64,000 nt of DNA from Candidatus Lloydbacteria bacterium RIFCSPHIGHO2_02_FULL_50_18 (GCA_001821395.1 MHLM01000015.1:1-64000), one strand, 5' to 3'; numbered from the stretch's first letter, positions 55 to 31,735 are shown. Translations and numbers: made by a program. Notes: generated by a model not told the origin, from the sequence alone.

Positions 55-702
55 TTAATCCTTTAGTTTATTCATTGTGGTGACAATGTTTGATCCAAAT
101 TGCTCATAGATCATCGTTACAAATATCGTGGAGATGATGATCCAAACAAAAATATCGAAGATGATACCGATCTGTAACCCGGGAAATTGTTCAAGTCCTG
201 CAAAAATAGCAAAAACAACGATACTGTTTTCTAGCGATAAAATGCTTATGATCTGCGAAATTGCCTCCTTGCGATTTATGATCATGAAAAGAGAAATGAA
301 TATCCCGGAAAGCGCGATGGCCAAAATACCTTGGTGCAGAGGAATGATGTTCGTCAGCGGAAGTAGTCGCTGCGAGTGCGCCAAGAAGGTCAGCATGGCA
401 ATGACAATAAGCGTGAGCGGCATATTGAGATAGGTGCTTACCGAAAATGACAGTTGATGTTTTTCTATTAACCGAATAAAAAACATCGGGGCGAGGATGA
501 CCTTGATCACAAGGGTGAGCAAAACGAGCAGCAATACATATAAGTTTCTCGTCTCCAGATATGAGCTAAGGAAGATCATCATTACTGCAAAAGACTGTAT
601 ACCGAATACCATCGCTGCCAGATAATTTTTTTTTGTCAGGTTAAGGAAAATGAGGGAGAGAAAAATGAGACCTGCAAAGAACTGTAATATTGAGATATCC
701 AT
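55..702 (-). CDS. HyfE-like (NuoK-related) small membrane subunit of a hydrogenase-4/formate-hydrogenlyase-type complex
   Basis: 215 aa, multi-pass hydrophobic protein. Its size and position downstream of NuoL-like and NuoH-like genes match hyfE. Confidence 0.55.
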   Translation of the reverse strand: MDISILQFFAGLIFLSLIFLNLTKKNYLAAMVFGIQSFAVMMIFLSSYLETRNLYVLLLVLLTLVIKVILAPMFFIRLIEKHQLSFSVSTYLNMPLTLIVIAMLTFLAHSQRLLPLTNIIPLHQGILAIALSGIFISLFMIINRKEAISQIISILSLENSIVVFAIFAGLEQFPGLQIGIIFDIFVWIIISTIFVTMIYEQFGSNIVTTMNKLKD

Positions 703-703
703 A

Positions 704-1633: not shown

Positions 1634-1639
1634 AAGTTT

Positions 1640-3691: not shown

Positions 3692-3692
3692 A

Positions 3693-4289
3693 TTATTTTG
3701 CAGTTAGGGATCTCTTATCCACGACCTCCAGTATGTGCAGAAGCCCGAGCAAAATATCTTTGGGTGAGGGTGGGTCGCCGGGGATATGATAATGAACCGG
3801 GATGACAGAATCCACGCCGTCCATGACTGCATATGAACCCCTGAAGATCCCTCCATCAAGCGCATCATCACCGATCGCTACCACGATCTTAGGTTCCGGG
3901 GTCGCTTCATAGGCGTCCTTGACCGCCGAAGCCATATTTCTTGTAACTGGTCCTGTGACAAAAAGCATATCGGCATGGCGAGGAGAAGCGACAAAATGTA
4001 TACCAAAACGTTCAACATCGTAAAAATTATTCGATAGCGCAACCAATTCCTGCTCGCAGGCATTGTCGGAACCGGCATCAACCTGCCTTATTGCGAGCGA
4101 ACCATGAAAAAGGCGCTTAATATTATCGCGTACTTTTTCTCCCACCTCCGCATACGCTGCATTCGCAATATCCCCAGAGTCTATGCTAATGACATTATTT
4201 GGTGTCTTAATTATTTTGAGAAAAATATTCAACATATTTACCATTATGAAACGTCTAATACACTCGGACGAAATCGCTATCCCCCTCAA
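3693..4289 (-). CDS. NuoB/HycG-like small subunit (group 4 hydrogenase / complex I 20-kDa family) lacking most [4Fe-4S] Cys ligands
   Basis: Aligns along its length to E. coli HycG/NuoB (ERFGIHFVASPRHADMLFVTGPVT, IPVHYHIPGDPP). The canonical Cys positions read A-G-S-D-N-A-C, GDDALDGG and GDPP. Confidence 0.75.
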   Translation of the reverse strand: MRGIAISSECIRRFIMVNMLNIFLKIIKTPNNVISIDSGDIANAAYAEVGEKVRDNIKRLFHGSLAIRQVDAGSDNACEQELVALSNNFYDVERFGIHFVASPRHADMLFVTGPVTRNMASAVKDAYEATPEPKIVVAIGDDALDGGIFRGSYAVMDGVDSVIPVHYHIPGDPPSPKDILLGLLHILEVVDKRSLTAK

Positions 4290-4532
4290 CTATTTTTTCA
4301 GAAAAATCCACACAAATTGAACCCCATACCACAGATACCATGCTAACCATAAAACGAAATATGGTTGCAACTGGTGCAACTAATAGAATAAATATATGCA
4401 ATTTTTAAAATTAAGTCAAAAAATGGACATACTGAAGCCCTTTTCTGCCATTCTCGCTTCAAGAATGAACGGAGTGTCATTAGGAAAAATTGGTCGCGCA
4501 AAGCTCTTCGATTCCTGTTGGAGGAAATTCCA

Positions 4533-4572
4533 ATGCCGGGAATCTCGGCTACCGCCGCGGGTGATATTCAAT
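4533..4572. repeat. Repeat copy 1: 8-nt antisense tRNA-Pro 3' fragment (atgccggg) fused to a 34-nt element GGAATCTCGGCTACCGCCGCGGGTGATATTCAAT (identical at 25107-25140)
   Basis: Direct string identity between the two loci; a diverged third copy lies at 17406-17450. Confidence 0.7.
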
Positions 4573-4735
4573 CTCGACGACTCGATAATGAATATCCTTT
4601 CGATTCTCGTCGACAGTGCCGCAGAGTGAGAATCGGTCACGAGTTACTAAGCTTTTTATTTCGCTACGCTCATAAAAATCTAAGTACTCTCGACCCCGAC
4701 TCGCTCGCCTCGAAGACTCGGCATAGCTCCGTCTT

Positions 4736-4825
4736 TCGATCCCCGGGCGGGACTGAGGCAGCTCAGTCCCTCATCCCGACCATATGAAAAAACACCTGAT
4801 GGCGTTTTTTCATATGGTCGGGATG
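4736..4825. repeat. Plus-strand inverted partial copy of the tRNA-Pro 3' half (T-loop through CCA) interrupted by a 9-bp hairpin with a GCAG loop, followed by a 21-bp perfect inverted repeat that includes the real tRNA-Pro 3' end; also a bidirectional terminator
   Basis: ttcgatccccggg (4736-4748). Hairpin gggactgag-gcag-ctcagtccc (4749-4770). catcccgacca (4772-4782). Arms 4772-4792 / 4805-4825 with loop cacctgatggcg. Confidence 0.6.
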
Positions 4826-4888
4826 CCGGGAATCGAACCCGGTTCTTGCGAACCCGAATCGCAAATACTACCGGTGTACTACATCCCG
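4815..4888 (-). tRNA. tRNA-Pro (anticodon CGG), CCA encoded
   Basis: Manual cloverleaf: acceptor CGGGATG/CATCCCG with the C1:G72 pair typical of bacterial tRNA-Pro. Anticodon stem TGCGA/TCGCA, loop TTCGGGT, T-arm CCGGG-TTCGATT-CCCGG. 74 nt. Confidence 0.85.
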
Positions 4889-4955
4889 TCTATTCTCTGA
4901 CGGTTCCAACTCAATAAATAACTCATCTACTATACTCCACAAAACACCTTCAACG

Positions 4956-9281: not shown

Positions 9282-12200
9282 CTATACTGCCCCCGCAATG
9301 AGGTCTTCTTCGAATTGTTCGATTCCAGCAAGATCGGGGGAATATTTTGAAACATCCGGAAAATCAAGGCTGATGATCTTTTTATGGACCGCCTGGATCA
9401 GCTGCTTGAGACGTGCAACGTCTTCGTCGGTTATCGAAAGCGAAAGCGATCTGATCTCGCCGTCGACTGGCTCAAGAAATTCAAGCGTTCCTTCGTGCAC
9501 CTTCCAATTGGCAAACTCGTGGGAATTTTCGACGAGAATCTTATAGAACACCAGCTGACGTTTGTAATTATGGAGTGTGACCTTCTCGCGCGCATCCTTT
9601 CCGTCCCAGTCATACTTCGCTTTTCCGGTCTTGAAGTCGATGACATGCATATTCCCTTCTTCCTCGACCATCTTGTCGATCTTGCCCGTGAGTTGGACGT
9701 CTTCGAGAACGACGCCCTGAGCGCGAAAATCCGCTTCCGAGCGGTCGGCCTTCTTTGCGGTCTTCCCTCTCTTCTCCCACCAGACATCAAGCGCCTCTCT
9801 TCCGTGATCGCGAAAATGTGTGCGCTCAGATCGCATCATCCGTTCCTTTTCGATCGCCTCATCGAAGAAGCGAACGAGATCAGCCTTTGATGGAATTTTC
9901 CCGCTCTTGTGCAAATGGCGATAGAATATTTCGATAGCCTTGTGCATCGCGCTGCCGAATGCACTCGAGGGACTCATCGCCTGCGGGAAGCGCAGCAGAT
10001 TCTGTTCAAGAAAAGCGGTCGGTCCTCCGATAGTGACATTGAGAAAATTATTCAGATGCGTGACGCTCATGCGGTAATCCTTCACCAGCTCGGCAAGTAT
10101 CGCTTGCTCGCCGGGAACAATCGGGTAGAACGACGGATGATCGGGCACCCCCGCGATCGCCTGCACGATCTCCTCGGCTGATACACTTGTCTCGTTTTGC
10201 GCAACATGTGTTGCGAGTGAGCCCTCAGGCTTGTCCGGTTTGATGTAGTGCACGGTGAGCGTGTCTTTCCCCGCATCGTCTTTGCGATATGCAGAGAGAC
10301 ACAGATGGCGCTTCGCACGCGTCAGTGCAACGTAGAAGATGCGCAATCGATCGTCACCGCCCTCCTCTCGCTCGATAGGAAGATTGATCGGGAACGGGAG
10401 TTTATTCGGGAATCCACGACCCGCCCATACTTCCTCCTGACAGGAGATGACGAAGACCGCATCGAACTCGAGGCCTTTTGCCTTGTGCGCGGTCATCAGA
10501 TTCACCGCATTTGCGGCGCTTGCGAATGGCGTTGTGTCGGCGAGTGAGATACCATTCCGCTCGTGCATGTCCGCAAACTCTACTAAGTGACTGAGCGTGA
10601 GCTGTTTTCCCTTACGAAATTCACGAAGTGAGCCGACAAACACGCGCAGACTCGAAAGAAAGAGCAGATACCGCGGCTCATTATTCCTCCGCGCAATAGG
10701 ACCAAAATAGAACTCACGGAAGGGACTCTTCCATGTGCTTGGTTTTTTATCCGAAACGAAAGGTTTGATCGATTCATCGTGCGCGTCCTCGCCCCCTCCC
10801 GGCAGGAGCACGCCGTCACTCCCGATCAGTTCATCGAGAATGCGCTCAAGCGGCTCATGCTGTGAGCGTGCCGCGATCTCGATCAGCCATTCTCCAATGA
10901 TGCGCAACTTCTCGTTCGGATGCTCTTTCATTGCGCCGATCCACAATCGATCGTCCCGTCTATTCGCCGCGACAGAGAGATCCCAGATATCCTTTCGGCT
11001 GATGCCCCAGAACGGTGCAGTAAGTATCTCGGGCAAATATTGATCGGCCTCTTTTTGGTCACTCTTCAATAGTGTGACGATGAAGCGCGCCAATGTGACG
11101 ATGATGCGAATGTGCTCCTCTTCAAATACATTCTGCTTGCGCTCATAGGTGATCGGCATGCCGCTGCGCACCAAGACGCGTGCAATATCTTCAAGCTCCC
11201 GGTGCCTGCGAGAAATGATGGCGATCTCTTTTGCGGGTACACCTTCGGAAATCAGACGCTTCACCTCGTGCGCGACATACGCGTATTCGTGTGCGCGAGT
11301 CGGGAGCAACATGTGTTCGATGTTGCCCTTACCAAGCTCAGGTCGCGCGGCGATCAGCTTTTTCTCGAGCGTAGGAATGACCCGCTCGAGCCGCTCGTCA
11401 CTCTTTTCGATCACCTCTCGAGCAACATCGAGAATGTCCTGTGTTGAACGATAGTTCTTGGTGAGCACGATGAGCGCATGGTCCTTGTAGTGTTTGGGGA
11501 AATCAAGAATATTCGATATCTCAGCACCTTGAAAGCGATAGATAGCCTGATCGTCATCGCCCACGATCATGATATTCGCCTTACCTTCGTTCACCGGCGC
11601 ATTACCGAGATGGCGAACGAGTCGCAGCTGTGCATCATTCGTGTCCTGAAATTCATCGACGAGAATGTACTGATAGCGTTCCTGCAGGTCAGCAAGGAGT
11701 GACGGATGATCCTCAAGCGTTGAAACGACGTCAAGCAACATGTCATCAAAATCATAATAACCCTCCTTCCGCATCTCTTCGCGATACCGTGCGTATATAT
11801 CTGCAAGCGAACGCATTTTATCGAGATAGAGCGTGTCCTTGAATACCCGTTCATCAGCATCGGTAGTCTTCATCCATGACTGCTTCCACGCCGAAAGCGG
11901 AGCGGTCTTCTCTTCATCAATCGACAGACGCAGCGCCCGAGTGAGTGACAGTCCAATACTTGCTGAGATCGGAAGCCGAGCATCAAGCGGTACCGGAGCG
12001 CCGCCCTCCGCGGCGAGTTCCTTTGCGATGGCAGCGATCGGATCAAATGAATTTTTCGATAGACGCTCTGCGAATATCTTTCCAAGGAGTGTGTTGATGT
12101 GTTCGAGCGATCGCTCATTCCCTTCTATCAATTCTACAAATTCGTGAGGCGTAATGCCTGCCTGTTTCAAAAGTCCGATCGCCCGCTTCGCATCTTTAAT

Positions 12201-15044: not shown

Positions 15045-15520
15045 CTGCCGGAAAACTCATCATGACCGCCCGAAAGAAACTCTTCGATCCTCCGTTTTGT
15101 CGCAGGGGCGATATCTTCCGGCAGTTGATCGATCGGAAAAAAGCGACGCTCCGCGATCTCAAGATTCGGCCTCCAAAGATCAAGCTCCTCCCACTCACCG
15201 GCCACATACACATGCATCGTGATCGTCGTAAAAAAACGTTTCTCAGAGTAGGTACCGAGTTTGCGCACGATATTTCTGATGAACACCCGAGCCTCCTCTT
15301 TGGTCTCTCGGATAGCGGCGGACTCCGGTGCCTCAAGCGACTCGATCTTTCCTCCGGGAAACTCCCAGTGAGGACGATAAGTTGTCTTGATCAGCAAAAT
15401 TTCCCCATGCCGTTCGACGAGGGCTTGTGCACCGTTCAGCTGGATTCCTAATAACGATTCCGCACCGACAAGCGTACGGTACAGATAATTGAGGGCTGGA
15501 GAATAGGTGATCATACTCAA
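15038..15520 (-). CDS. NUDIX hydrolase
   Basis: Nudix box GGKIESLEAPESAAIRETKEEA. Confidence 0.8.
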   Translation of the reverse strand: MSMITYSPALNYLYRTLVGAESLLGIQLNGAQALVERHGEILLIKTTYRPHWEFPGGKIESLEAPESAAIRETKEEARVFIRNIVRKLGTYSEKRFFTTITMHVYVAGEWEELDLWRPNLEIAERRFFPIDQLPEDIAPATKRRIEEFLSGGHDEFSGSW

Positions 15521-17349
15521 TTATATCCTACTGCCTGGAGGGCAAAAAGTCGTGCGTATTCTCCCCCAAGAGCGACCAGCTCCTCGTGGGTCCCCGACTC
15601 CTTGATCGTCCCGTCCAAGAGTACGATGATCTTGTCAGCGTGCCGCACCGTAGAAAATCGGTGTGAGATAAGGATGACGGTGCGGTCCTTCGGCAGTGCT
15701 TCAAGCTTTTCAAAGATGTGCGCCTCAGATTCGGCATCGACCGAGGCGGTCGGCTCATCGAATATCCATATCCGTGGATCGCGATAAAAGACCCGTGCGA
15801 TGGCAAGCTTCTGTTTTTGCCCAATGGACGGCTCGATGCCATTATCAAACTCTTTCCCCAGTACCGAGTCGTACCCTTTCGGCAGATTCCCGACAAAAGA
15901 TTCGGCCTCGCTTTTCATCGCCGCATCCTCGATCAGGTGCATGTCTTCCGAGCTCGATGAATCACCCAATGCGATCGCTTCTTTGATCGTAAAACTGTCA
16001 TAGGTCGAATATTCCTGAAAGAGCGCGCCGATCATTCCATACCAGCTCTTCTGTTCGACCAACCGCAGGTCTGTTCCATCGACCGTGATCTTCCCCATGG
16101 TGGGGTCGTAAAAGCGCGCGAGCAATTTGATGAGCGTTGTCTTCCCCGCCCCGTTCAATCCGACGATGGCGAGCTTTGTTCCGGCGGGAATATGCAGATC
16201 AATATCGCGGAGGATCGGGGTAGTCGAATCCGGATATGAAAAATCAACATGATCAAATACGATATCGGGCGTCTTAGCGGAGTCCAATATGATGGGGTGT
16301 TCCGCCTCCGCAATCATCCCGGGAAGATCGAGCAGCTTGAACACATCCGTGACGAAAAGATTATCCTGGTACTGGACGCCGAGATTCGAAAAGAACCCTG
16401 AGAGCGACATACTCAGTCCCCCCATCGAGGAAAGAAGGAACACGAAAGTACCGATGGCGATCTCACCGGCGAGCACCTGATGCACGAACCACAACGCAGA
16501 GATACCAATAGTAAGCTGTGCAAAAAATTGGGTTGAGAGCTGAAGCAGTAACTTGTGACGATCTGCACGAATTTGTTCAGACTGAAATGAGGCATACAGT
16601 TCACCGATAAGTGACATGAATTTTTTCACATTCTGGAACAGTTTGAGTTCGATCAGATGTCGCACGTGCACGGTATGCTCCGTAAGTGCCCAGAATCGCC
16701 GCCGACGCGCCGCCCCCGAGCCATAGATACTCCACACCTCTCTTCCGTATTTTATCTCTATATAAAGGCTGGGTATCGTACCGACCACGAGCAAAAGGAG
16801 CAGCCACCACGTCGCATATCCCAATACGACCATAGCGATGATGATCTCAAAAATATTCTGCAAAATGAAAAGTTGACGACTTGCAAAACTCTCCATACGC
16901 CACACACCGCTTTCTTTCACCTTAAGAAAGATATCCTGCAATGCGGGGTCCTCGTGACTGGCAACATCAAGCACGGCCATCTTGGAATACACGAGCATCG
17001 TAAACAATTCCTCAAAATAAAAACGAAATACCTTGTTGTAATACCACTGAAGCGTATAGACGAGCGGGGGCAAGACCTCCGAAAAGATCAGAAACCCCAC
17101 ATACAGCAATATCTCTTTATCGAAAACGCCTTTTCCTACGGCACCCAAAAGATGGTTAATGAGCAGAGCCACTGCGCCCGTCCGCAGAAACGGCATCGCT
17201 GCGCCGAATACATACAATGCACCAACGGAAGTCAGAAGCAATTTTCGTCCTCCCCAGACGATAAGCCAAACACGCTTCATGTTGATGAGCGTTGAGACGA
17301 GCGCAGACAAGCGCAGTGTTTCTTGATGTTCAGGGTTCGATCGTGGCAT
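15517..17349 (-). CDS. ABC transporter, fused permease/ATP-binding exporter (MsbA-like)
   Basis: Six N-terminal TM helices. Walker A GLNGAGKTT, signature SIGQKQ, Walker B IWIFDEPT, H-loop. Confidence 0.85.
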   Translation of the reverse strand: MPRSNPEHQETLRLSALVSTLINMKRVWLIVWGGRKLLLTSVGALYVFGAAMPFLRTGAVALLINHLLGAVGKGVFDKEILLYVGFLIFSEVLPPLVYTLQWYYNKVFRFYFEELFTMLVYSKMAVLDVASHEDPALQDIFLKVKESGVWRMESFASRQLFILQNIFEIIIAMVVLGYATWWLLLLLVVGTIPSLYIEIKYGREVWSIYGSGAARRRRFWALTEHTVHVRHLIELKLFQNVKKFMSLIGELYASFQSEQIRADRHKLLLQLSTQFFAQLTIGISALWFVHQVLAGEIAIGTFVFLLSSMGGLSMSLSGFFSNLGVQYQDNLFVTDVFKLLDLPGMIAEAEHPIILDSAKTPDIVFDHVDFSYPDSTTPILRDIDLHIPAGTKLAIVGLNGAGKTTLIKLLARFYDPTMGKITVDGTDLRLVEQKSWYGMIGALFQEYSTYDSFTIKEAIALGDSSSSEDMHLIEDAAMKSEAESFVGNLPKGYDSVLGKEFDNGIEPSIGQKQKLAIARVFYRDPRIWIFDEPTASVDAESEAHIFEKLEALPKDRTVILISHRFSTVRHADKIIVLLDGTIKESGTHEELVALGGEYARLFALQAVGYN

Positions 17350-17405
17350 ACATACTGAGGCGTTAAGCCTCGACGCTCATTTTAACATATTTAACGCCCT
17401 AGCTG

Positions 17406-17450
17406 TGGACCATAACGGAATCTCCACCTACCGTGGCGGGTGGATTCTCC
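17406..17450. repeat. Degenerate tRNA-Ala 3'-end-like repeat (att-like), diverged copy of the 25096-25140 element, located just past the end of hsdR
   Basis: tggaccataacggaatctccacctaccgtggcgggtggattctcc, compared by eye with tggaccgtacaggaatctcggctaccgccgcgggtgatattc and with the 3' part of tRNA-Ala(GGC). Confidence 0.5.
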
Positions 17451-17469
17451 TACGGAACAATACAAATTG

Positions 17470-19827
17470 CTATTTTACCCCCGCGTACAAACTTCTCTGG
17501 AAATCAAAAAAGGTCGAGCGAATAGCGTCTACATCCCCGAGAATATCCACCGCATCAGCAATAGCGTGATATTTCAAATTGAGCAATTGCGGGAGCTTTT
17601 CTTCGTCGAGCTCCTCGACTCCGCGCTCGACATACTTAGCAAGTACGAACTCAAGAAAATCTTTTTGATCATCATTCAATCCGCCCAAGATTGCACTCTT
17701 GGCACCCAAAACACGATCGACGCGCGAGATTGGCTGTACGCAAAACGAGACATAAGCGAGCACGTCAAACAAATCACTGTTTTCCGCATCGATCATCTTT
17801 TGAAGTATCTCAAGCTCATCCTTCCCATACCCCGCCTCAGCAAGCTTATCGAGAAATACTTTTCTCGTACTTGGATTGGCCCAAATTTCACGAAGCTCAA
17901 CTTCATTCTTATAAAATGAAGGGAGTGCACCGAACATGTTGTTCATAAATTCCTCTACCGAGATCGGCTTCCCATCTGCGCTCCAAAATGAGGTGGAGAT
18001 CATATGCTTTATTTCTCGATCCTTTCCATCCCGCAACTTTATTTTAAGCTTTTGTATGGGTGGAGGCACATCGCACACGCACGGCTTCTGTCCGCACACA
18101 ACGCATGGCGCGGTCGGAGGCTTCACACACACACAGGGCGTCATACCACATGCTGCACAGGGTTGTTTCGGCGCTGGCTCCACTATCGGCTCATCAATGG
18201 GCTCTCCGTCCCACTCAGGGTCAGCGAAGTGATGATACGCATCCACAAAGTCATAGATAGTGAAATACTCCTTTCCGTCAAAGAGCCGAGTTCCTCGTCC
18301 AACGATCTGCTTAAACTCAATCATGGAGTTTACGGGGCGCATCAGTACAATATTGCGAATGTTTCGCGCATCGACTCCCGTCGAGAGCTTTTGTGAGGTA
18401 GTGAGGATGGTGGGGATACTTTTTTCATTATCCTGGAATTCTTTCAAATACTGATCCCCGCGAGCACCGTCATTGGCCGTCACGCGCACACAATAATTTG
18501 GCTCAGTGCTCTCTTTCATCTGATTCACCAAGTCACGCACTGCGAGTGCATGGTCTTGTGTTGCGCAAAAGATAATAGTCTTTTCGTTTTGATTTATCTC
18601 CTCAAGTATGACGCGTACACGCTTCGCCTCACGCTCCTTGATCTCGATGATCTTATTAAAGTCCGCCTCTTCGTAGATTTTTCCTTCCTCCACTTCCCCC
18701 TCGATGATCTGGTCGTCCGAAGTGTACACATAATCATCCATCGTCGTCTTGATACGCTTCACCTTAAATGGCGTCAGAAATCCGTCATTCACTCCGGTTT
18801 TGAGCGAGTAAGTGTATACGGGCTTTCCGAAATAGTTGTAGGTGTCCACGTTGTCTTGCCTGCGTGGCGTCGCGGTGAGCCCAAGGTGTACCGCAGGCGC
18901 GAAGTGCTCGAGGATCGCTCGCCAATTGCTCTCATCGTTCGCACCCCCACGATGACACTCGTCAATAATGATCAGATCAAAAAAGTCCGAGGGATAGTCC
19001 CCGAAATATGGCGAACCATTTTGCCCGCTCATAAAAGTCTGGAATATGGTGAAAAAGATGCTCCCATTTGTGGGCACAGCACCCTTCTTCCGTATATCAA
19101 GTGGATTAATGCGCACAAGTGCATCCTCATGGAAAGCCGAGAATGAATTAAATGCCTGATTTGCTAAAATATTTCTGTCGGCAAGAAAGAGGATTCTCGG
19201 GCGCCTCCCTCCATCTCGCGCCAAGTTCCATCGTGACTGAAAAAGCTTCCACGCGATCTGAAATGCAATAAAAGTTTTCCCCGTGCCTGTCGCAAGCGTT
19301 AGAAGCGCCCGTTGCTTGTTTTCCGCAATTGCATCGAGTGTATTGTTCACGGCAATTTCTTGATAGTATCGCGCACTCTTTGTGCCGTTCATATCCTCAA
19401 ACGGGACAGCGGCAAATTTCTCCTTCCATGCATTTTGGTCAGAATAGACCATGTTCCATAATTCATCAGGAGTCGGGAAACGTTCCACATATTTCTCCGC
19501 ACCCGTCTCCATGCATATCTCGTATATTTCTTTGCCGTTAGTGGCATAGGTATATTTGATCTCAAGTTTCTCAGCATAAGCCTTCGCCTGTGCGACGCCC
19601 TCCGTCGCCGAGAGTCCCTCATGCTTTGCCTCCACAACCCCGATCTTCATGTTTTTATAAACCAAAATATAGTCAGCGATCTCAGGCTTCCCGCGTACTC
19701 CACCAGTCATAATGCGTCCGAGGGTTATGCGAAACTCCCGCAGGACCTTCGATCCCTCGATCTCGCCCCATCCGGCTTCTTTCAGCTTCGGATCAACATA
19801 TTCCGCTCGTGTTTCAGATTCATTCAT
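17470..19827 (-). CDS. hsdR: type I restriction enzyme R subunit
   Basis: N-terminal PD-(D/E)xK (ADYIL...VVEAKHEG). SF2 motifs (LATGTGKTF, DECHRG, TATPRRQ, motifs V/VI). EcoEI-R-type C-terminal domain. Unusual Cys-rich insert at 18067-18159. Confidence 0.85.
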   Translation of the reverse strand: MNESETRAEYVDPKLKEAGWGEIEGSKVLREFRITLGRIMTGGVRGKPEIADYILVYKNMKIGVVEAKHEGLSATEGVAQAKAYAEKLEIKYTYATNGKEIYEICMETGAEKYVERFPTPDELWNMVYSDQNAWKEKFAAVPFEDMNGTKSARYYQEIAVNNTLDAIAENKQRALLTLATGTGKTFIAFQIAWKLFQSRWNLARDGGRRPRILFLADRNILANQAFNSFSAFHEDALVRINPLDIRKKGAVPTNGSIFFTIFQTFMSGQNGSPYFGDYPSDFFDLIIIDECHRGGANDESNWRAILEHFAPAVHLGLTATPRRQDNVDTYNYFGKPVYTYSLKTGVNDGFLTPFKVKRIKTTMDDYVYTSDDQIIEGEVEEGKIYEEADFNKIIEIKEREAKRVRVILEEINQNEKTIIFCATQDHALAVRDLVNQMKESTEPNYCVRVTANDGARGDQYLKEFQDNEKSIPTILTTSQKLSTGVDARNIRNIVLMRPVNSMIEFKQIVGRGTRLFDGKEYFTIYDFVDAYHHFADPEWDGEPIDEPIVEPAPKQPCAACGMTPCVCVKPPTAPCVVCGQKPCVCDVPPPIQKLKIKLRDGKDREIKHMISTSFWSADGKPISVEEFMNNMFGALPSFYKNEVELREIWANPSTRKVFLDKLAEAGYGKDELEILQKMIDAENSDLFDVLAYVSFCVQPISRVDRVLGAKSAILGGLNDDQKDFLEFVLAKYVERGVEELDEEKLPQLLNLKYHAIADAVDILGDVDAIRSTFFDFQRSLYAGVK

Positions 19828-20477
19828 GATGATTGTTTCGCACCATACTGCTTAACTGCCACACCGTCATATCTTTCTTTGAGTCCCTCATAAATAAGAC
19901 TCACGAGGGGCTTATAATCATCGGCATGATCGATTTGCGCAAGCGCCTGACGGTAGCGATTCTTATTTTCCTTTTCTACTTTTATTGATATACCAATTAA
20001 CCCGTAGCGCTCCAAAATCAAATTCGCAGCAAGACGAGCAGTGCGTCCGTTCCCATCCCGAAATGGATGAACGCAGGTGATAGAATAATGCAACCATGCC
20101 GCCAGATGAATAACTCGCTCAACCGTCTGATGGACTTTCGCCATGCTTACATTTTTTCCTCTTATTATTCCCTCTGCTTTATCTAGCGCTTGTAATTTTT
20201 TCTGCAACTCGACCTCCCTTTCGTTCATGAGGTCATTTATTTTTGAGTGATGAGGGGGGACGTGACTTGAGTCTGTTATTTCAAGATTTTCCGTTCTATA
20301 CTTTCCCGCAATATCAGGCCAGGCATCTTTGAATATTTCCCGATGAATTTCCTTGATCGTTTCAATCGAAATACCCTTGTGTGATCGTGCAAATTTTCTT
20401 ACAAAACGAGAAGCGCGGATCACTCCAATCGCTTCTCGTTTTTGTAACTCTTCTTCCGAGCGCGGACACTCTACCAT
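19824..20477 (-). CDS. Fic/DOC-family protein (putative AMPylating toxin, FicT-like)
   Basis: Fic motif HPFRDGNGRTARL. Confidence 0.85.
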   Translation of the reverse strand: MVECPRSEEELQKREAIGVIRASRFVRKFARSHKGISIETIKEIHREIFKDAWPDIAGKYRTENLEITDSSHVPPHHSKINDLMNEREVELQKKLQALDKAEGIIRGKNVSMAKVHQTVERVIHLAAWLHYSITCVHPFRDGNGRTARLAANLILERYGLIGISIKVEKENKNRYRQALAQIDHADDYKPLVSLIYEGLKERYDGVAVKQYGAKQSS

Positions 20478-20485
20478 GGCAATGC

Positions 20486-20680
20486 TTACGCTACTTTTAG
20501 CGCAAGTTTTTCAAATTCCCCGCGATCAAGCTTGCTTCCCTCAAGCGCACTCGAATAATAGGCATGCTCAATATCCCAACTTTTTTCAAGGGCGGATTTT
20601 TGTTTTGGCGTAAGCTGAGAAATCTGTCGTTCTGCAACTTTCTTACTCGCCATTAACTGTACGAGCCGTAGATTCTTCAT
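20486..20680 (-). CDS. FicA/VbhA-like small antitoxin carrying the inhibitory [S/T]xxxE[G/N] helix motif
   Basis: 64-aa ORF. Motif IEHAYYSSALEGS. Its stop lies 9 nt before the Fic ATG, in a different frame. Confidence 0.55.
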   Translation of the reverse strand: MKNLRLVQLMASKKVAERQISQLTPKQKSALEKSWDIEHAYYSSALEGSKLDRGEFEKLALKVA

Positions 20681-20772
20681 GGATATGACTATACCACTAT
20701 TTGACTATTTTACAACTCCTCATGTTTCAGGGGTGACTCCTTGGCCTTGAAAGGTGTCTCCTCGGAAACTGC

Positions 20773-21978
20773 TCACAACTCCCCAGCAAAGGCCTTTTTC
20801 AACACTGATTTTTTAAGCTCCTCAATATCAGCAAGTTTTTGCCCGTAGATTCCTTCAAGTTTTTTTGTCTGCTCCGCAAGCGCATCGAGCTTTTTGACGA
20901 TGGTTTTTTGCTCTGAGACAGATGGAAATGGAAACCGCTCATGCTCAAACGTTGCCATGTTGATATTGGCCTGCGCACTTCCTTTTCCTTTTGCCTGGAG
21001 TACTGCCTTAAATGATTGCAAAAGATACTCGACAAAATTAGTATCTGCAATTTTGGGATTAGCAACAAGTCCGATCACGCTATCAGGAAAACACGCATCG
21101 AAATTCAGAATTCCAGTTTCTGCGATATTCGCCGCAATCGTAATGCAGATAGTTCCTCTCGGCCACAGCTTGCTCTGCGCCAGTCCCGCCTCGCTATACG
21201 ACTGTGAGTACTCCACAATAAAGTGTCCAGAATTTCGAATATCTCCCGTCTGAATAAAGGGGTACTTTCCGCCATAGAGTTTTTTGTCGTTTCTTGGGCG
21301 ATGCTTAGATTTTCCTCTGCCGAATTGCAGGGAGACTTCTTCTAGCGTCTTTTTCTCCCATTTCGAATTTTCAAAAACCCCCTGCAAATACGATTCAAAA
21401 AGTTCGCGGGAATTCTTCAAATTCTTCTCCGCATTCTCCTTCGCCTTCTCCACTCCCTCAAAAACCTCATCAAGAATTTTTACGATGCGCTTTTGCTCGA
21501 TCGCAGAAGGAAAAGGTATCTCAACCTCTTTTAATTTTGTTCCAGAAAGTTCCTTAAAAGTTGTACCACTACCCAAACTATTCAAAAGTTCAACTGAATC
21601 TTTCAAAAAATAATAGAGAAATTTTGTATCAAGATTTTTATTCGGTATTAATCCCTTACACCCCTGATTTGTTGAAATTTCTTTTGTGTTTATCGCCAAG
21701 TGACCAATCGGAGCACGGGTAGACAAAATAATCGAGTTGGGTGGAATGATTTTTGCTGACGACCTTTCTAATCCAGCCTTTGAAATTTTTCGTTCTGTTT
21801 CCTCAACGTATATTTTCCTAAGTCTCCCCATGTCTTTGGGTGTGATCCACAAAATATTTCCATCCCAGTACCTCAAAACGCCCGTTTTAGGAGTTCCTCC
21901 GTTTACAATCTCGCAAACCTCCCCAAGTTTTTTTATTTGCCAGTTAGTTTTCATAGTGAGAAATAATTTGCTTTCCAT
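20773..21978 (-). CDS. hsdS: type I restriction-modification specificity subunit
   Basis: Two target-recognition-domain layout with conserved central/C-terminal helices. TRD motif EIVNGGTPKT. Alternative start ATG at 21954. Confidence 0.85.
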   Translation of the reverse strand: MESKLFLTMKTNWQIKKLGEVCEIVNGGTPKTGVLRYWDGNILWITPKDMGRLRKIYVEETERKISKAGLERSSAKIIPPNSIILSTRAPIGHLAINTKEISTNQGCKGLIPNKNLDTKFLYYFLKDSVELLNSLGSGTTFKELSGTKLKEVEIPFPSAIEQKRIVKILDEVFEGVEKAKENAEKNLKNSRELFESYLQGVFENSKWEKKTLEEVSLQFGRGKSKHRPRNDKKLYGGKYPFIQTGDIRNSGHFIVEYSQSYSEAGLAQSKLWPRGTICITIAANIAETGILNFDACFPDSVIGLVANPKIADTNFVEYLLQSFKAVLQAKGKGSAQANINMATFEHERFPFPSVSEQKTIVKKLDALAEQTKKLEGIYGQKLADIEELKKSVLKKAFAGEL

Positions 21979-23113
21979 TCTGTATCAATTGGTCGTAAGT
22001 GAGAATGTCTATATCATGTAAACTAGAGTTTAAAAAATGAAGAGCTTTTTTCTCATCCTCAGTAAAGGCATCTGACCGACCGAGAATGAGCTGGACTCTT
22101 GGTCTTAGTATTCGAACAGAGTGCTGAATCGACAAAGTTTTTTTATAGTCTTCGATTCTTTGTAAATAAATTAAGGACTGACCAATTGCTTCCGAGAAAG
22201 GGCTCGTAGGGAAATGGCAACGATGCGAAGTATCATATCTAAACAGCGGGCTGCCGACACTTGGCCTCTTAACTTCAATGAGGCTGATAAATCCATCGGG
22301 CGTTTCGAGTACGATGTCTGCCTCAGAGTTATCTTCTCCAATCTTCCTGAATGTGTGCTTTTTGTAGTACTCGACTCCAAAAACCCACAAATTAGCCCCA
22401 ATCCATTTATGAAACACACCCTCTGGTTGATTTGCGTGATATTTCTTTAGTGCACCATTTCCTTTTATTGCCTCAAGGAAATTCACGTCAGATTCGATGC
22501 TTAAAAGGTATTCTAAATTAGCAATAGCCTCTTTGTGTTCTTTTTGTTTTATTGCTGCGCTCAAACTCTCGACGTCAAGGGCATCAATATTCTCAATAAA
22601 CTTCTGAAATAAACTATTTCTTTCAGCGGTGCCCAACTTATTAAAAAGCTGAAACAGCTGATCAGATGTTAATGCTTGCGACCCATGCAATAACTGTGAA
22701 AATGCATTCTTTCGCTCCACAAGTTCACTTACGTTTTGATCAGTAAATTTTAAATTTTCCTTAGAAGTTAAGTCCAGTAAATCTAATGATTCAAGAAACT
22801 TAATAAAGCGAGTAAGTGCTCCTCCATGAAAACTGAAAGATTGATTATGTGGTATGCCAGTATCTTTTGAAAATCTTTGAATGCGCAATGAAAACCCAGT
22901 GGTGTCTTGATTATAAATAGCGGTTATTTCTTGCACTGCGCTTTCGCGTATGACCTCAAAAACTTTCTTTTCTTTTTGATCGTTATAAAAATCTTTAAAA
23001 TCTTTTAGCTCAAATACTTTTGAAATGTATCTGATGTTCCCATCTTTCCCAATCGCCCTACTCACATAAGTAAGTGCGGGGTCTTTTTTGATCGCATACT
23101 CTCCATTGCTCAT
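21944..23113 (-). CDS. uncharacterised protein with a putative PD-(D/E)xK nuclease core, nested between hsdM and hsdS (possibly DUF4263/Shedu-like; candidate accessory defence gene)
   Basis: 389 aa. Motif SEADIVLETPDGFISLIEVKRP (D...E-x-K). The gene overlaps both neighbours by a few nt, so it is in the operon. Confidence 0.5.
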   Translation of the reverse strand: MSNGEYAIKKDPALTYVSRAIGKDGNIRYISKVFELKDFKDFYNDQKEKKVFEVIRESAVQEITAIYNQDTTGFSLRIQRFSKDTGIPHNQSFSFHGGALTRFIKFLESLDLLDLTSKENLKFTDQNVSELVERKNAFSQLLHGSQALTSDQLFQLFNKLGTAERNSLFQKFIENIDALDVESLSAAIKQKEHKEAIANLEYLLSIESDVNFLEAIKGNGALKKYHANQPEGVFHKWIGANLWVFGVEYYKKHTFRKIGEDNSEADIVLETPDGFISLIEVKRPSVGSPLFRYDTSHRCHFPTSPFSEAIGQSLIYLQRIEDYKKTLSIQHSVRILRPRVQLILGRSDAFTEDEKKALHFLNSSLHDIDILTYDQLIQNGKQIISHYEN

Positions 23114-24555
23114 AACAAGTTTTTCAATATCTGAGCACTTTCTTTATCCAATTTCTCCATTTCCTTCAAAATCTCCTTCGGGGTGCGCAGCGCTACCTCA
23201 CCTCCCTTGTTTGGATTCTTTGCCGATAGGTCGAAGGTCTTCTGGTCGACGTCTTTTATGTCTATGCTCCATGAATTTTCAGAATCACCATTCGTCTCTT
23301 GGAGTTTTATAAAATCAGCAAGGTCGGCTTCGTTGAGTGCATTGGTCTTGCCGAGGTTGCGGTCGAGGTTGAGCTGATAGAACCAGACTTTTTTCGTTGG
23401 TGCACCCTTCTCAAAAAAGAGTATGACCGTTTTCACCCCTGCACCAGTGAATGTGCCACCTGGCAGGTCGAGCACGGTGTGGAGATTGCAACTTTCAAGC
23501 AGCATTTTGCGAAGCGACACCGAAGCATTGTCGGTGTTGGAAAGAAAGGTGTTTTTGATGACCACACCCGCTTTTCCTCCGGCTTTCAGCATTTTGATGA
23601 AATGCTGGAGAAAAAGAAATGCCGTCTCTCCCGTTTTGATAGGAAAATTCTGCTGTACCTCAGGTCTCTCTGAGCCTCCAAATGGCGGATTCGCAAGCAC
23701 GATCTCATAGCGGTCTTTCTCCTGAATATCCGCAAGGTTTTCGGCAAGTGTGTTGGTGTGAATGATGTTCGGAGCCTCGATGCCATGGAGAATCATGTTC
23801 ATGATGCCAATGATGTAGGCGAGCGATTTCTTCTCCTTGCCGTAAAATGTCTTCTTCTGAAGTGTCTGCATGTCGCTTGTCGAAAGCTTCTTGCTCTCCT
23901 TCAAGTATTCAAACGCTTCCACGAGGAATCCCGCCGAGCCCACAGCCCCATCATAGACTTTATCGCCGATTTTTGGAGCGACCACCTTCACGATGGTCTT
24001 GATGAGTGGGCGCGGGGTGTAGTACTCGCCACCATTGCGCCCTGCGTTGCCCATGTTCTTTATCTTGCCCTCGTAAAGGTGTGAAAGCTCGTGCTTTTCG
24101 CTCTGCGAGCGAAAGTGCATTCCATCCACGAGGTTCAGCACCTCGCGGAGGTTGTACCCACTTTGTATCTTGTTTTTGATCTCGCTAAAAATTTCTCCGA
24201 TCTTGTACTCGATCGTGTCGGGACTCACTGCATCCGCCTTGAATTTCTTGAAATACGGAAAAAGCTCGCGCTCGACGAAATCCTTAAGGTCATCACCCGA
24301 CAGTGCTTTGCTGTGGTCAATCTTCTTATCTCCTGTCTTGGGCACTGCCCACACTTCCCAGCGAAACTTCGGCGAGATGATATATTCGTATTTTTTACCT
24401 GCGAGCTTCGCCTCGGTCTCCTTATCCTTTTCAAGATCATCAAGATACTTGAGAAAGAGCACCCACGAAGTCTGCTCGATATAATCCAGCTCACTCGACG
24501 CCCCCGCATCCTTACGCAATATGTCATCAATATTTTTAAAGTGTTGTTCAAACAT
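23110..24555 (-). CDS. hsdM: type I restriction-modification N6-adenine DNA methyltransferase
   Basis: HsdM N-terminal domain. SAM-binding motif DGAVGSAGFL. Catalytic motif NPPFG. Start moved to ATG 24555 because the longer ORF would overlap the tRNA. Confidence 0.9.
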   Translation of the reverse strand: MFEQHFKNIDDILRKDAGASSELDYIEQTSWVLFLKYLDDLEKDKETEAKLAGKKYEYIISPKFRWEVWAVPKTGDKKIDHSKALSGDDLKDFVERELFPYFKKFKADAVSPDTIEYKIGEIFSEIKNKIQSGYNLREVLNLVDGMHFRSQSEKHELSHLYEGKIKNMGNAGRNGGEYYTPRPLIKTIVKVVAPKIGDKVYDGAVGSAGFLVEAFEYLKESKKLSTSDMQTLQKKTFYGKEKKSLAYIIGIMNMILHGIEAPNIIHTNTLAENLADIQEKDRYEIVLANPPFGGSERPEVQQNFPIKTGETAFLFLQHFIKMLKAGGKAGVVIKNTFLSNTDNASVSLRKMLLESCNLHTVLDLPGGTFTGAGVKTVILFFEKGAPTKKVWFYQLNLDRNLGKTNALNEADLADFIKLQETNGDSENSWSIDIKDVDQKTFDLSAKNPNKGGEVALRTPKEILKEMEKLDKESAQILKNLL

Positions 24556-24561
24556 TTTTTT

Positions 24562-24637
24562 TGGTGGACCATGGGAGAATCGAACTCCCCACCTCTTCCA
24601 TGCCATGGAAGCGCTCTACCAAATGAGCTAATGGCCC
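24562..24637 (-). tRNA. tRNA-Ala (anticodon GGC), CCA encoded
   Basis: Manual fold: acceptor GGGCCAT/ATGGTCC with G3:U70. D-arm GCTC-ATTTGGTA-GAGC. Anticodon loop ATGGCAT. T-arm GGGAG-TTCGATT-CTCCC. 76 nt. Confidence 0.85.
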
Positions 24638-24892
24638 GTAGAAAGATGATAACTTACAAATGGGTTTTCTTCAATGAAGACGGGGGGGGTCGAGTCGTGA
24701 AGGGAGTCGAAGCTTATTCGAGATCGTCATCGCAAGCTTTGTGGAGATGGCAAGTCGTGTAGTGCGTTGCCGGAGGGCAACACTGCTACGAAAAAGCCAA
24801 CCGGGTGTCTGGCTTTGCGGACTTGGCTTACAGCTTCAGTACGCCTTTTCGATTTATTCAGAGCGAAGCTCTTCATAAATAACGAAAAGCCC

Positions 24893-24988
24893 TTCGACTC
24901 CCCGCCGCAAGTGAAGCAGTTCACTTGCTTGAGTCCACAGGTACAAAAAAATTACGATTTCTCGTAATTTTTTTGTACCTGTGGACTC
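24893..24988. repeat. Inverted partial copy of the tRNA-Ala(CGC) 3' half (T-loop, GCAG-loop hairpin insert, acceptor 3' strand) followed by a 27-bp perfect inverted repeat / bidirectional terminator
   Basis: ttcgactccccg (24893-24904). Hairpin gcaagtgaa-gcag-ttcacttgc (24907-24928). Arms 24931-24957 / 24962-24988 with loop tttc. Confidence 0.6.
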
Positions 24989-25052
24989 ACGGGGAGTCGA
25001 ACCCCGGACTCGGCAATGCGAATGCCGTGTAATACCACTTTACTATGAGCCC
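24982..25052 (-). tRNA. tRNA-Ala (anticodon CGC), CCA not encoded
   Basis: Manual fold: acceptor GGGCTCA/TGAGTCC with G3:U70. Anticodon arm CGGCA-TTCGCAT-TGCCG. T-arm CGGGG-TTCGACT-CCCCG. Confidence 0.8.
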
Positions 25053-25095
25053 AGTAGGCGAATAGTAGCGAATTTATCCGTGGGGTGCAAATTGT

Positions 25096-25140
25096 TGGAC
25101 CGTACAGGAATCTCGGCTACCGCCGCGGGTGATATTCAAT
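25096..25140. repeat. Repeat copy 2: 14-nt antisense copy of the tRNA-Ala(UGC) 3' end (tggaccgtacagga) fused to the same 34-nt element as 4539-4572; first unit of a degenerate tandem array of tRNA-3' fragments (cgtacaggaat at 25101, 25145 and 25314)
   Basis: Exact 34/34 identity with 4539-4572. Repeated cgtacaggaat and ccagtttc-r-attt strings between 25096 and 25420. Confidence 0.65.
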
Positions 25141-25398
25141 TTCGTACAGGAATTTCGACGCCTACTGCGTCAGTACCCAGTTTCAATTTGAATACAGGAC
25201 TCTTCCTCTACGAGGACAGTATACCTTTCACCACAGAGAGTACTTCTTGTTTTCTAGCTCACTTCGTTCGTAAGTAAACAATGTCGTCCGTTTACTGAGG
25301 ATAAGAATCCTGCCGTACAGGAATCTCTCCCCTTACAGGGGCAGTGTCCAGTTTCGATTTACTCAAAATAGGAATTTCTCGTAAATATCGAAACAGGC

Positions 25399-25500
25399 TT
25401 CGAGTCCTTACGCAAGCAATGCAGATTGCTTGCTACGGTCCACACCATATAAGAAAAAACTGCCTTACGGCAGTTTTTACTTTATGGTGTGGACCGTACA
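25399..25500. repeat. Inverted partial copy of the tRNA-Ala(UGC) 3' half with GCAG-loop hairpin insert, plus a long imperfect inverted repeat / terminator
   Basis: ttcgagtcct (25399-25408). Hairpin gcaagcaat-gcag-attgcttgc (25412-25433). tacggtccacacc (25434-25446) inverted against gtgtggaccgta (25486-25497). Terminator aaaaactgcc-ttac-ggcagttttt. Confidence 0.55.
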
Positions 25501-25562
25501 GGACTCGAACCTGCCACCCCCGCATTGCAAATGCGGTGCTCTACCAGATGAGCTAACGGCCC
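25490..25562 (-). tRNA. tRNA-Ala (anticodon UGC), CCA not encoded
   Basis: Manual fold: acceptor GGGCCGT/ACGGTCC with G3:U70. Anticodon arm CCGCA-TTTGCAA-TGCGG. T-arm GCAGG-TTCGAGT-CCTGT. Confidence 0.85.
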
Positions 25563-25817
25563 TAAAACATTTTGCTGCAAAACGTTCGGGCGAACAATTT
25601 TTCGGAAAATTGTTTTAGCCCAATGACCAACAAAGAGCTTCTTCGTCAGTAACGGAAAGAATACACTAAAACAGTATCTCAAACAAGTACCCCACCGATC
25701 ACAGAAGAAGAGCGATGTATCTTTCAACTATTTCCTCAAGTGTAAGCCGTTCCTATTGTGCGGCAGAGGTGGGGTCCATACGATCAAATACCACTGACGC
25801 GGCGATTGAGAACCTGA

Positions 25818-26783
25818 TCACCGTGACACGACACATAGTCCAATCACATGATCGAGAAATTCGGGAAACGCTACTCCCCCGGCCGCGAGCGCTTTAGGAA
25901 TGAGTGATTCATCAGTGAGTCCCGGGAGCGTATTGATCTCAAGCGTGTAGATACCATCATCGGAAATAATGAAGTCTGTACGAGAATAATGCCGTGCACC
26001 GATCGCTCGGTGCGCTTTGACCGCCATGTCGCGGAGTGTACTGTGCATCCCAAGCGTGAATCTTCCGGGGCATATCTCACTCGTCGCACCCCCATACTTC
26101 GCTTCGTAATCAAAAAATTCCTTGGAACCCTGCGGAACGATCTCGATCGGATAGAGGACAAAATATTCACCCTCCGCTCCGCTGTCAATGACGCACACGG
26201 TTGCCTCCTTTCCTGAAATGACATCTTCAACAAGCACATCACCGAATTGTGCGGCGATCTCTATTGCAGACGCCAGTTCCGGAAAAGAGCGCACGATCGT
26301 TGTACCAACGGACGACCCCCCCGTAACCGGCTTCACGATAAGCGGAAAATTTCTATTGCGGTAGATCTCAAAAGCGGCATCGGCAATATCCACCCCCCCA
26401 ACGACGATATCTCCACGGGGTACCAAAAGTCCGTTTTCCACAAAGCGCTCTTTTGCCAGACCCTTGTGCATACCGATGGCCGACGGTAGCGATGCGGAGC
26501 CTGTGTACGGCATGCCGAACTGTTCAAAAAGCTGTTGTATCTTCCCATCTTCACCGTACGTGCCATGAAGGGCGTTCCAAATGACGTCAACGTGGGCGGC
26601 GATATTCGCAAAGTCCGTCTGCATGCCGTTCATGAGCCACTCACCGCCTTTTGTTAAAATGATATCGACGGGAGCATATTTGTTTTGATCGAGACTACGC
26701 AGCACGTTAGCACCCGTATTGAGGGAGACCTCATATTCACTTGAGGGACCGCCGCGCACTACGCCAACACGGATCTTTTCCAT
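25818..26783 (-). CDS. ddl: D-alanine--D-alanine ligase
   Basis: ATP-grasp Ddl motifs (RVGVVRGGPSSEYEVSL, C-terminal EINTLPGLT). Start taken at MEKIRVGVV. Confidence 0.9.
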   Translation of the reverse strand: MEKIRVGVVRGGPSSEYEVSLNTGANVLRSLDQNKYAPVDIILTKGGEWLMNGMQTDFANIAAHVDVIWNALHGTYGEDGKIQQLFEQFGMPYTGSASLPSAIGMHKGLAKERFVENGLLVPRGDIVVGGVDIADAAFEIYRNRNFPLIVKPVTGGSSVGTTIVRSFPELASAIEIAAQFGDVLVEDVISGKEATVCVIDSGAEGEYFVLYPIEIVPQGSKEFFDYEAKYGGATSEICPGRFTLGMHSTLRDMAVKAHRAIGARHYSRTDFIISDDGIYTLEINTLPGLTDESLIPKALAAGGVAFPEFLDHVIGLCVVSR

Positions 26784-26816
26784 ACATCCATTATAACGCA
26801 AAAGGGACGTCGGGGG

Positions 26817-31700: not shown

Positions 31701-31735
31701 AATGTAGGTGATAATATTATAGCACGTGCCGGGAA

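Follow-up and report, generated by a model that had tools for sequence, protein, structure and literature searches.

A type I restriction-modification operon with embedded Shedu and Fic modules downstream of a tRNA-Ala array in Candidatus Lloydbacteria

A defence block adjoins tRNA-Ala(GGC)

The 64,000-nucleotide stretch of Candidatus Lloydbacteria bacterium RIFCSPHIGHO2_02_FULL_50_18 analysed here (GCA_001821395.1, MHLM01000015.1:1–64000; hereafter the window, meaning this stretch at its full length) contains, immediately downstream of a tRNA-Ala(GGC) gene, a block of approximately 7.1 kb (17470–24555) with the gene order hsdM-sduA-hsdS-ficA-ficT-hsdR. The block is probably a composite, horizontally acquired anti-phage operon, which lies in a recombination hotspot downstream of the Lloydbacteria tRNA-Ala array. 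The identities and motifs of its genes, its boundaries, its absence from relatives and its similarity to sequences of other phyla were read directly. A preliminary description, made from the sequence of the window, had listed hsdM, a gene of 389 amino acids (aa), hsdS, a Fic pair and hsdR in this order, with hsdM starting 6 nucleotides (nt) past the 3′ end of tRNA-Ala(GGC); this content and order were confirmed. All features of the block, together with the tRNA-Ala genes and ddl, lie on the minus strand. The block and its two boundaries are composed as follows.

24562–24637, minus: tRNA-Ala(GGC), intact, CCA encoded, ending at 24562 (ARAGORN; Rfam tRNA, 60.7 bits); left block boundary
24556–24561, minus: A6 spacer separating the CCA of the tRNA from the hsdM ATG
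23110–24555, minus: hsdM, 481 aa
21944–23113, minus: sduA (Shedu nuclease), 389 aa
20773–21954, minus: hsdS, 393 aa
20486–20680, minus: ficA-like antitoxin gene, 64 aa
19824–20477, minus: ficT-like Fic toxin gene, 217 aa
17470–19827, minus: hsdR, 785 aa
17405–17455, minus: terminal element of the tRNA-Ala(GGC) trailer; right block boundary

The genes are tightly packed. The sduA ATG overlaps the hsdM stop codon (ATGA), the start of hsdS overlaps the end of sduA by 11 nt, ficA lies 8 nt upstream of the Fic toxin gene, and the ficT stop codon overlaps the hsdR ATG (again ATGA). At the edges there are only the 6 nt past the tRNA CCA and 14 nt from the hsdR stop codon to the trailer element. The sole internal gap is one of 92 nt before ficA, and the one other gap measures about 120 nt, so the block has no room for an integrase. 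This agrees with the preliminary description, which had seen no integrase: every gene of the block has an assignment, and none of the 30 open reading frames (ORFs) of the window that were scanned encodes one (a few ORFs lay outside the scan).

The block is absent from relatives and similar across phyla

The genes that frame the site are the following.

25818–26801, minus: ddl, upstream of the three tRNA-Ala genes
25489–25562, minus: tRNA-Ala(TGC) (ARAGORN, Rfam)
24981–25052, minus: tRNA-Ala(CGC) (ARAGORN, Rfam)
24638–25562, minus: context region with tRNA-Ala(CGC), tRNA-Ala(TGC) and structured trailers; terminator stems taking in the tRNA 3′ end, and repeat families D2 and D4
25096–25140: paralogous terminal element, within this context region
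15517–17349: gene for an MsbA-like ABC exporter, followed by a NUDIX gene, both beyond the block

We compared the site with five Lloydbacteria loci (L001, L154, L155, L156 and L158), whose ddl is 64–79% identical to that of the window. All five keep the ddl/tRNA-Ala/NUDIX backbone and none has the restriction-modification (R-M) block; other cargo, or almost nothing, is found there.

L001, ddl 79%: three tRNA-Ala genes as in the window, followed by 4.6 kb with a helix-turn-helix protein, an ECF-type (extracytoplasmic function) sigma factor and three unknown ORFs, then the ABC and NUDIX genes
L154, ddl 67%: tRNA-Ala(TGC), an inverted tRNA-Ala(GGC), then NUDIX directly
L156, ddl 64%: approximately 7 kb of genes, a Y1 transposase gene first, between tRNA-Ala(TGC) and tRNA-Ala(GGC)
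L155, ddl 68%: another arrangement
L158, ddl 64%: another arrangement

Presence and absence at a conserved site, by which tRNA islands are recognised, is therefore seen here between species. HsdM is 80–88% identical to proteins labelled Gracilibacteria, Peregrinibacteria, Margulisiibacteriota, WOR-1, Omnitrophota, Parcubacteria and Anaerolinea, whilst the best non-self match of ddl is at 79% (Lloydbacteria) and most Lloydbacteria ddl are only 60–68% identical. Since HsdM is more alike across phyla than ddl is within Lloydbacteria, and since the block is missing from the relatives, we conclude that it was probably acquired horizontally. The same two observations uphold the preliminary view of a foreign defence block beside tRNA-Ala(GGC), at a site that proves variable; the module occurs at this tRNA in 0 of the 5 relatives, whereas its presence in all of them would have spoken against that view.

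The ABC gene next to the block was considered as a defence ATPase of the island and rejected, as it encodes an MsbA-like exporter and L001 has it too. A metagenome scan with the ABC protein returned one distant orthologue (L079, 45% identity), which had no tRNA and was uninformative.

A type IB backbone carries Shedu and Fic modules

HsdM matches Pfam N6_Mtase (2e-63) and HsdM_N, as well as PADLOC MTase_I (7e-162). HsdS has two Pfam Methylase_S matches (5e-60), a PADLOC Specificity_I match (4e-122) and two target-recognition domains, and HsdR carries the Pfam domains ResIII, Helicase_C, EcoEI_R_C and HSDR_N_2. As HsdR scores 817 bits against the NCBIfam restrict_EcoAI equivalog (cutoff 550), the backbone is classed by sequence as a type IB system of the EcoAI/FtnUII family. 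As in the EcoAI and EcoEI systems, none of the three subunits is missing and each has the domains expected of it; the window operon differs from them in being interrupted twice, and in that its hsdM has neither a promoter nor a leader of its own and starts directly behind a tRNA gene.

The hsdM start is fixed at 24555, because all HsdM homologues begin MFEQ(S/A)FKNID. A longer hsdM ORF from 24606 (498 aa), which is called in some assemblies, was rejected as tRNA read-through on the evidence of the homologue N-termini. Among HsdM homologues with N-terminal extensions, none proved to be tRNA read-through, and so none of them shows the tRNA–hsdM fusion; a scan of viral contigs with HsdM gave one match, which was truncated and without a tRNA upstream. 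One homologue, P0159, is approximately 99% identical to the window HsdM over residues 161–481 and only 57–78% identical over residues 1–160, and the shared part takes in the atypical C-terminal end, ...AQILKNLL, next to sduA. This pattern suggests a mosaic, arising either by recombination inside hsdM or from a chimeric record.

The 389-aa product encoded between hsdM and hsdS matches Pfam SduA_C (PF14082, DUF4263) with 52.9 bits (cutoff 27) and PADLOC SduA (1e-33), and the nuclease motif D...EVK of the PD-(D/E)xK type can be read from its translation; its N-terminal 220 residues have no Pfam domain. By these matches it is a Shedu (SduA) nuclease, a defence system separate from R-M. Homologues are 52–75% identical, with labels that include Sedimentisphaerales, Omnitrophica and Parcubacteria. 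At none of the four homologue loci examined (52–68% identical) does the gene lie inside a type I R-M locus; it is found alone or in other defence clusters, and these stand-alone homologues in four contexts suggest that the window SduA could be autonomous as a single gene. With the SduA proteins of Bacillus cereus and E. coli it shares a C-terminal DUF4263/SduA_C PD-(D/E)xK domain, a variable N-terminal domain and homologues that are single genes in defence contexts; it differs in being joined to hsdM and hsdS by overlaps and in its host, a member of the Candidate Phyla Radiation (CPR).

Between hsdS and hsdR, the 64-aa ficA-like protein carries the inhibitory motif SSALEG, read directly, which fits (S/T)xxxE(G/N); it has no profile match in Pfam, PADLOC or NCBIfam, and its assignment to class I is by motif alone. 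The Fic toxin carries the active-site motif HPFRDGNGRTAR, which fits HxFx(D/E)GNGRxxR, and matches Pfam Fic (74 bits) and PADLOC PDC-S04 (1e-23) and SoFic (2e-21); its NCBIfam scores are far under the equivalog cutoffs for VbhT, NmFic and SoFic. The preliminary description had recognised a ficA/ficT-like pair, and judged by the two motifs this is a genuine FicA/FicT-type class I toxin-antitoxin (TA). It resembles the FicT/FicA and VbhT/VbhA class I modules in having a small upstream protein with the inhibitory motif and a downstream Fic protein with the active-site motif, and differs from them in that the toxin stop codon overlaps the hsdR start codon.

Non-hsd defence genes, namely Shedu and the Fic pair, are consequently found between the hsd genes of a single locus, as had been said of the accessory genes in the preliminary description. 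In the E. coli prr locus the embedded gene is that of PrrC, an anticodon nuclease held in check by EcoprrI. Shedu within R-M loci has been recorded in 602 cases (Gu et al., bioRxiv 10.1101/2023.08.10.552793); the nesting of defence genes in type I R-M loci was surveyed by Payne et al. (bioRxiv 10.1101/2024.01.29.577857), whose PDC candidates come from genes embedded in defence systems; and TgvAB of the V. cholerae island VPI-2 is embedded in a type I R-M locus (PMC11411939). The window block has in common with PrrC, TgvAB and the candidates of Payne et al. that independent modules stand between hsd genes, co-oriented and with operon-like spacing, and its Fic protein matches PDC-S04, a PADLOC candidate family of the PDC series. 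It departs from them in holding two unlike modules in one locus, and in its cargo, which is Shedu and a Fic TA in place of an anticodon nuclease or GmrSD-like enzyme. A further difference is the control of PrrC by EcoprrI; the window genes show no such functional tie to R-M.

The distal repeat belongs to the tRNA trailer

A degenerate copy of the tRNA-Ala 3′ region had been reported at 17406–17450 and interpreted as an attR-like repeat. The element at 17405–17455 consists of CCGTAGGAGAATC, followed by a hairpin, CCACC-CGCCACGGTA-GGTGG, and by AGATTCCGTTATGGTCCAC, which is a copy of the tRNA-Ala 3′ end. With the 3′ end of the window's own tRNA-Ala(GGC), the repeat shares only the 9-mer ATGGTCCAC, giving a local score of 18, whilst unrelated sequence elsewhere in the window reaches 20–23 against this tRNA, so that the similarity is not above chance. 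In contrast, the repeat matches 17 of 18 nt of the L156 tRNA-Ala(GGC) 3′ end, for which it is the best non-tRNA match in the window, and the 42 nt around it differ from the L156 element at a single position, GAATCCACCCGCCACGGTAGGTGGAGATTCCG(T/C)TATGGTCCAC. The reported copy is therefore a true homologue of a tRNA 3′ end, although its resemblance to the resident tRNA did not hold.

In L156, where the element lies 62 nt past tRNA-Ala(GGC), its final 18 nt repeat the 3′ end of that tRNA without a mismatch. The hairpin CCACCCGCCACGGTAGGTGG is found 62 nt past tRNA-Ala(GGC) in L156, 151 nt past it in L155, 208 nt past it in L158 and 7,118 nt past it in the window, where the R-M block stands in the position of the L156 terminator hairpin. 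Because the trailer element is present beside the tRNA in these three island-free loci, it is old and conserved and predates the insertion. As far as the alignments tell, the distal element marks the insertion point and is not an attR made by the island, and the interpretation of the repeat as a product of integration is withdrawn. A co-variation of the antisense piece 17443–17455 with the window T-arm was also considered and dropped, since its matches (11/13 versus 10/13) do not discriminate.

These observations bear on whether an integrase brought the block in. A tyrosine integrase acting at the 3′ end of tRNA-Ala(GGC) could have brought in the T-arm and acceptor end that the tRNA now has (attL) and pushed the original end out to 17405–17422 (attR), the integrase gene and the remainder of the element being deleted later. 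Such a history would suit a block that abuts the tRNA 3′ end, a distal repeat that resembles the L156 tRNA 3′ end at 17 of 18 nt, and a window tRNA whose T-arm differs behind an almost identical 5′ portion of 46 nt; the 4.9-kb insert of L156 moreover shows that insertion at tRNA-Ala 3′ ends does occur in the lineage. We nonetheless consider it unlikely, since the repeat adjoins the tRNA where there is no island, its similarity to the window's own tRNA is at chance level, no integrase was found in the block or among the ORFs scanned, the 6 nt and 14 nt of non-coding sequence at the edges leave no space for att arm sites, and T-arms also vary between species without any island. Of the proposed tRNA-integrated island, adjacency to the tRNA and foreign origin stand, whilst integrase-mediated integration is unsupported.

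The block is comparable to tRNA-linked islands and to att-flanked remnants without an integrase (CIME-like elements) in its position at a tRNA 3′ end, in the partial copy of a tRNA 3′ end on its far side and in its variable occupancy. As to differences, it has no integrase, and its distal repeat is part of a conserved structured trailer that island-free relatives also have and shows no significant similarity to the resident tRNA.

Expression signals

Two promoter-like sites are relevant to the block.

24646–24674, minus: sigma-70-like promoter candidate TTGAAG-17-TATCAT, immediately before tRNA-Ala(GGC); consensus match only
20688–20715, minus: promoter-like site TTGTAA-16-TG-TATAGT, with 7 nt from its end to the ficA ATG; consensus match only

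The interval between tRNA-Ala(GGC) and hsdM has no terminator-like hairpin, promoter or Shine-Dalgarno sequence; the other two tRNA genes are followed by strong hairpins. The site at 24646–24674 is the only promoter-like site placed to drive hsdM, and homologous sequence precedes tRNA-Ala(GGC) in L001. With a promoter-like site before the tRNA, neither terminator nor promoter before hsdM and few Shine-Dalgarno sequences in use, the simplest reading is that hsdM-sduA-hsdS belongs to the tRNA transcript. The overlaps at the hsdM/sduA, sduA/hsdS and ficT/hsdR junctions suggest translational coupling. Throughout the window most genes are without a Shine-Dalgarno sequence and many have a TATAAT-like box ending 6–10 nt before the start codon (for example 26784–26800, 31701–31725, 49751–49770 and 20681–20700), which suggests that leaderless or very short-leader mRNAs are widespread in this genome.

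Composition, and the case for a stepwise mosaic

Host genes in the window have a GC content of 0.493 ± 0.032 and a GC content at third codon positions (GC3) of 0.537 ± 0.046, against which the block genes compare as follows.

hsdR: GC 0.482, GC3 0.536, host-like
hsdM: GC 0.478, GC3 0.595, host-like
Fic: GC 0.433, GC3 0.390, low
hsdS: GC 0.411, GC3 0.415, low
SduA: GC 0.374, GC3 0.349, low

Fic, hsdS and SduA lie 2–4 standard deviations under the host mean, and the sliding-window GC minimum, 0.34, falls at 22500–22999. The GC and codon-usage check advised in the preliminary description, which had called the block A+T-richer than its flanks, thus finds a shift in the inner genes and none in hsdM and hsdR. 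Because the shift is limited to the inner genes, the block appears to be a mosaic that was assembled stepwise and not a single A+T-rich island; sduA and ficAT presumably entered an hsd backbone on separate occasions. Low GC is also seen at both ends of the window, where genes have 0.40–0.46 against a window mean of 0.49; those on the left (55–4289) encode NADH dehydrogenase/antiporter-like subunits and that on the right (62483–63385) a YgaP-like membrane protein.

Four observations weigh against a composite operon acquired at a hotspot. The GC content and codon usage of hsdM and hsdR are those of the host, which would fit an acquisition long ago or one from a donor whose composition was alike. 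The comparators are few, being five loci that are all 64–79% identical in ddl. A site free of the block, which the preliminary description had advised looking for, was found in relatives of other species, but no such allele occurs in the same species, all 12 of the 12 contigs with an identical ABC protein having the block; recent mobility finds no support in these contigs. Finally, promoter-like sites are no commoner in the region than in shuffled sequence.

The first and third of these would also be expected if the R-M operon were ancestral at this site and had been lost or replaced in the sampled relatives, a course of events for which hsdM and hsdR, with their host-like composition, and the fixation of the block in all same-species contigs could be cited. 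We regard it as very improbable: the block is absent from all five relatives that keep the site, the tRNA and the trailer element are adjacent in three of them, the identity of HsdM to proteins of other phyla exceeds that of ddl within the family, and SduA, hsdS and Fic are compositionally foreign. A chimera of assembly or binning at the tRNA–hsdM junction can practically be dismissed, for although the L157 and L159 contigs break right after ddl, which suggests that the array is hard to assemble, the exact tRNA–hsdM junction recurs in two independent assemblies (one from ENA and, from another run, one from Logan) and the hsdR–trailer junction in five, and so the arrangement is not chimeric.

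Proposed function and assembly

For the composite, horizontally acquired operon, we infer that its systems are active, that transcription continues into it from the tRNA, and how and in which order its parts were acquired. The roles of R-M, SduA and FicAT are those established for their families. HsdM and HsdS would methylate the target sites of the host, whilst HsdR would translocate and cut unmethylated DNA. SduA, placed between hsdM and hsdS, may add a nuclease layer that senses another feature of invading DNA, and FicT, a presumed AMP-transferase that FicA would restrain and that is encoded between hsdS and hsdR, is a candidate abortive-infection or addiction module.

The block would have replaced the terminator after tRNA-Ala(GGC), parting the tRNA from the end of its own trailer by 7.1 kb. 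Read-through from the tRNA promoter would then transcribe hsdM-sduA-hsdS, and 3′ processing of the tRNA would leave a near-leaderless mRNA with a leader of 6 A nucleotides; ficA-ficT-hsdR may be served by their own candidate promoter, which would place hsdR under the TA control region. The block is probably not self-mobile today. Its arrival was most likely by recombination at the tRNA and trailer flanks, or else by integration with machinery that has since been lost, and SduA and ficAT would have been added in separate events.

CPR bacteria (Patescibacteria) have tiny genomes and were once thought to be poor in defence systems. Here three layered systems (type I R-M, Shedu and Fic-TA) occupy 7.1 kb with hardly any non-coding DNA and with an apparently borrowed tRNA promoter, providing a clean, boundary-resolved case of stepwise assembly of embedded defence modules and indicating that the tRNA-Ala array between ddl and NUDIX is a hotspot for cargo in Lloydbacteria. 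The defence island is real but ordinary, given that Shedu and other genes nested in type I R-M loci are already documented, and the known properties of the component systems are unchanged by this locus.

Structured trailers and rearrangement of the tRNA-Ala array

The tRNA-Ala spacers contain a conserved series of hairpins, found at 24640–25488 in the window, 4034–4933 and 5008–5640 in L001, 11174–11428 in L154, 16240–16470 in L156 and 11126–11280 in L158. In order, they comprise the covarying hairpin H2 (GCAAGCAA-loop-TTGCTTGC), GGA(C/G)TCGAAG, a long hairpin (TTTGCGATGTTTACGAAG...CTGAGTAAACCGCAAAG), GGYRTACTG, small GNRA-like hairpins, and a terminal GAGATTCC with a copy of the tRNA 3′ end. 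When seven trailer copies from five genomes were folded with RNAalifold, 11 of the 21 predicted pairs kept their pairing through changes on both sides, and the paired positions include a stem that joins the last 6–9 nt of the tRNA to a segment past the terminator.

Extended terminator stems of this kind follow tRNA-Ala(TGC) and tRNA-Ala(CGC), and tRNA-Ala(GGC) in L158, with the tRNA end (GTCCAC...) pairing with GTGGAC past the terminator. They are located at 24930–24989 and 25434–25498 in the window, 4026–4078 and 4996–5046 in L001, 11166–11219 in L154, 11757–11808 in L155, and 11118–11168 and 13923–13974 in L158. The window copy behind tRNA-Ala(CGC) is a perfect palindrome of 28 bp. The intervening stem sequence is wholly different between species, and yet its complementarity is kept.

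An Rfam scan of 17200–26000 (E ≤ 1) returned the three tRNAs only, the trailers being without a family match; they could be structured RNA, att-like scars or a tRNA-derived miniature element. In both the window and L156, cargo stands between a tRNA and its trailer. It is conceivable, if doubtful, that the trailers represent an undescribed functional unit, made up of a terminator stem sequestering the tRNA 3′ end, several covarying hairpins and the terminal copy of the tRNA 3′ end. Such a unit might be an integrase-independent landing pad that time and again captures cargo, as in the window and L156, or an RNA element that controls tRNA-Ala maturation; either way, the R-M operon would hijack the tRNA promoter, with a tRNA–mRNA co-transcript and leaderless translation.

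The 4.9-kb insert of L156 (11339–16240) begins with a Y1 (IS200/IS605-type) transposase gene and has four further ORFs without known domains. It parts tRNA-Ala(TGC) from its trailer, an insertion point of the same kind as that of the window's R-M block, and the displaced trailer starts with a remnant resembling a tRNA end, TCCCCACAAC. A decayed copy of tRNA(TGC) at 16225–16265 of L156 was seen by eye, not by local alignment, and is suggestive only. Directly upstream of the intact tRNA-Ala(TGC) of L156 lie two tandem copies of approximately 98 nt (11074–11264), each with the first ~20 nt of tRNA-Ala(TGC) (GGGCCGTTAGCTCATCTGG...) followed by unrelated sequence.

Relative to tRNA-Ala(TGC), tRNA-Ala(GGC) is inverted in L154 (11429–11502) and L155 (11474–11547), and in L001 it is quite different, having a CGC-like body behind a promoter region homologous to that of the window. 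The tRNA-Ala array appears to be often rearranged or converted. The L157 and L159 contigs end approximately 130–150 nt past ddl, where the tRNA-Ala array would start, and these breaks are consistent with repeats or strain variation at the hotspot.

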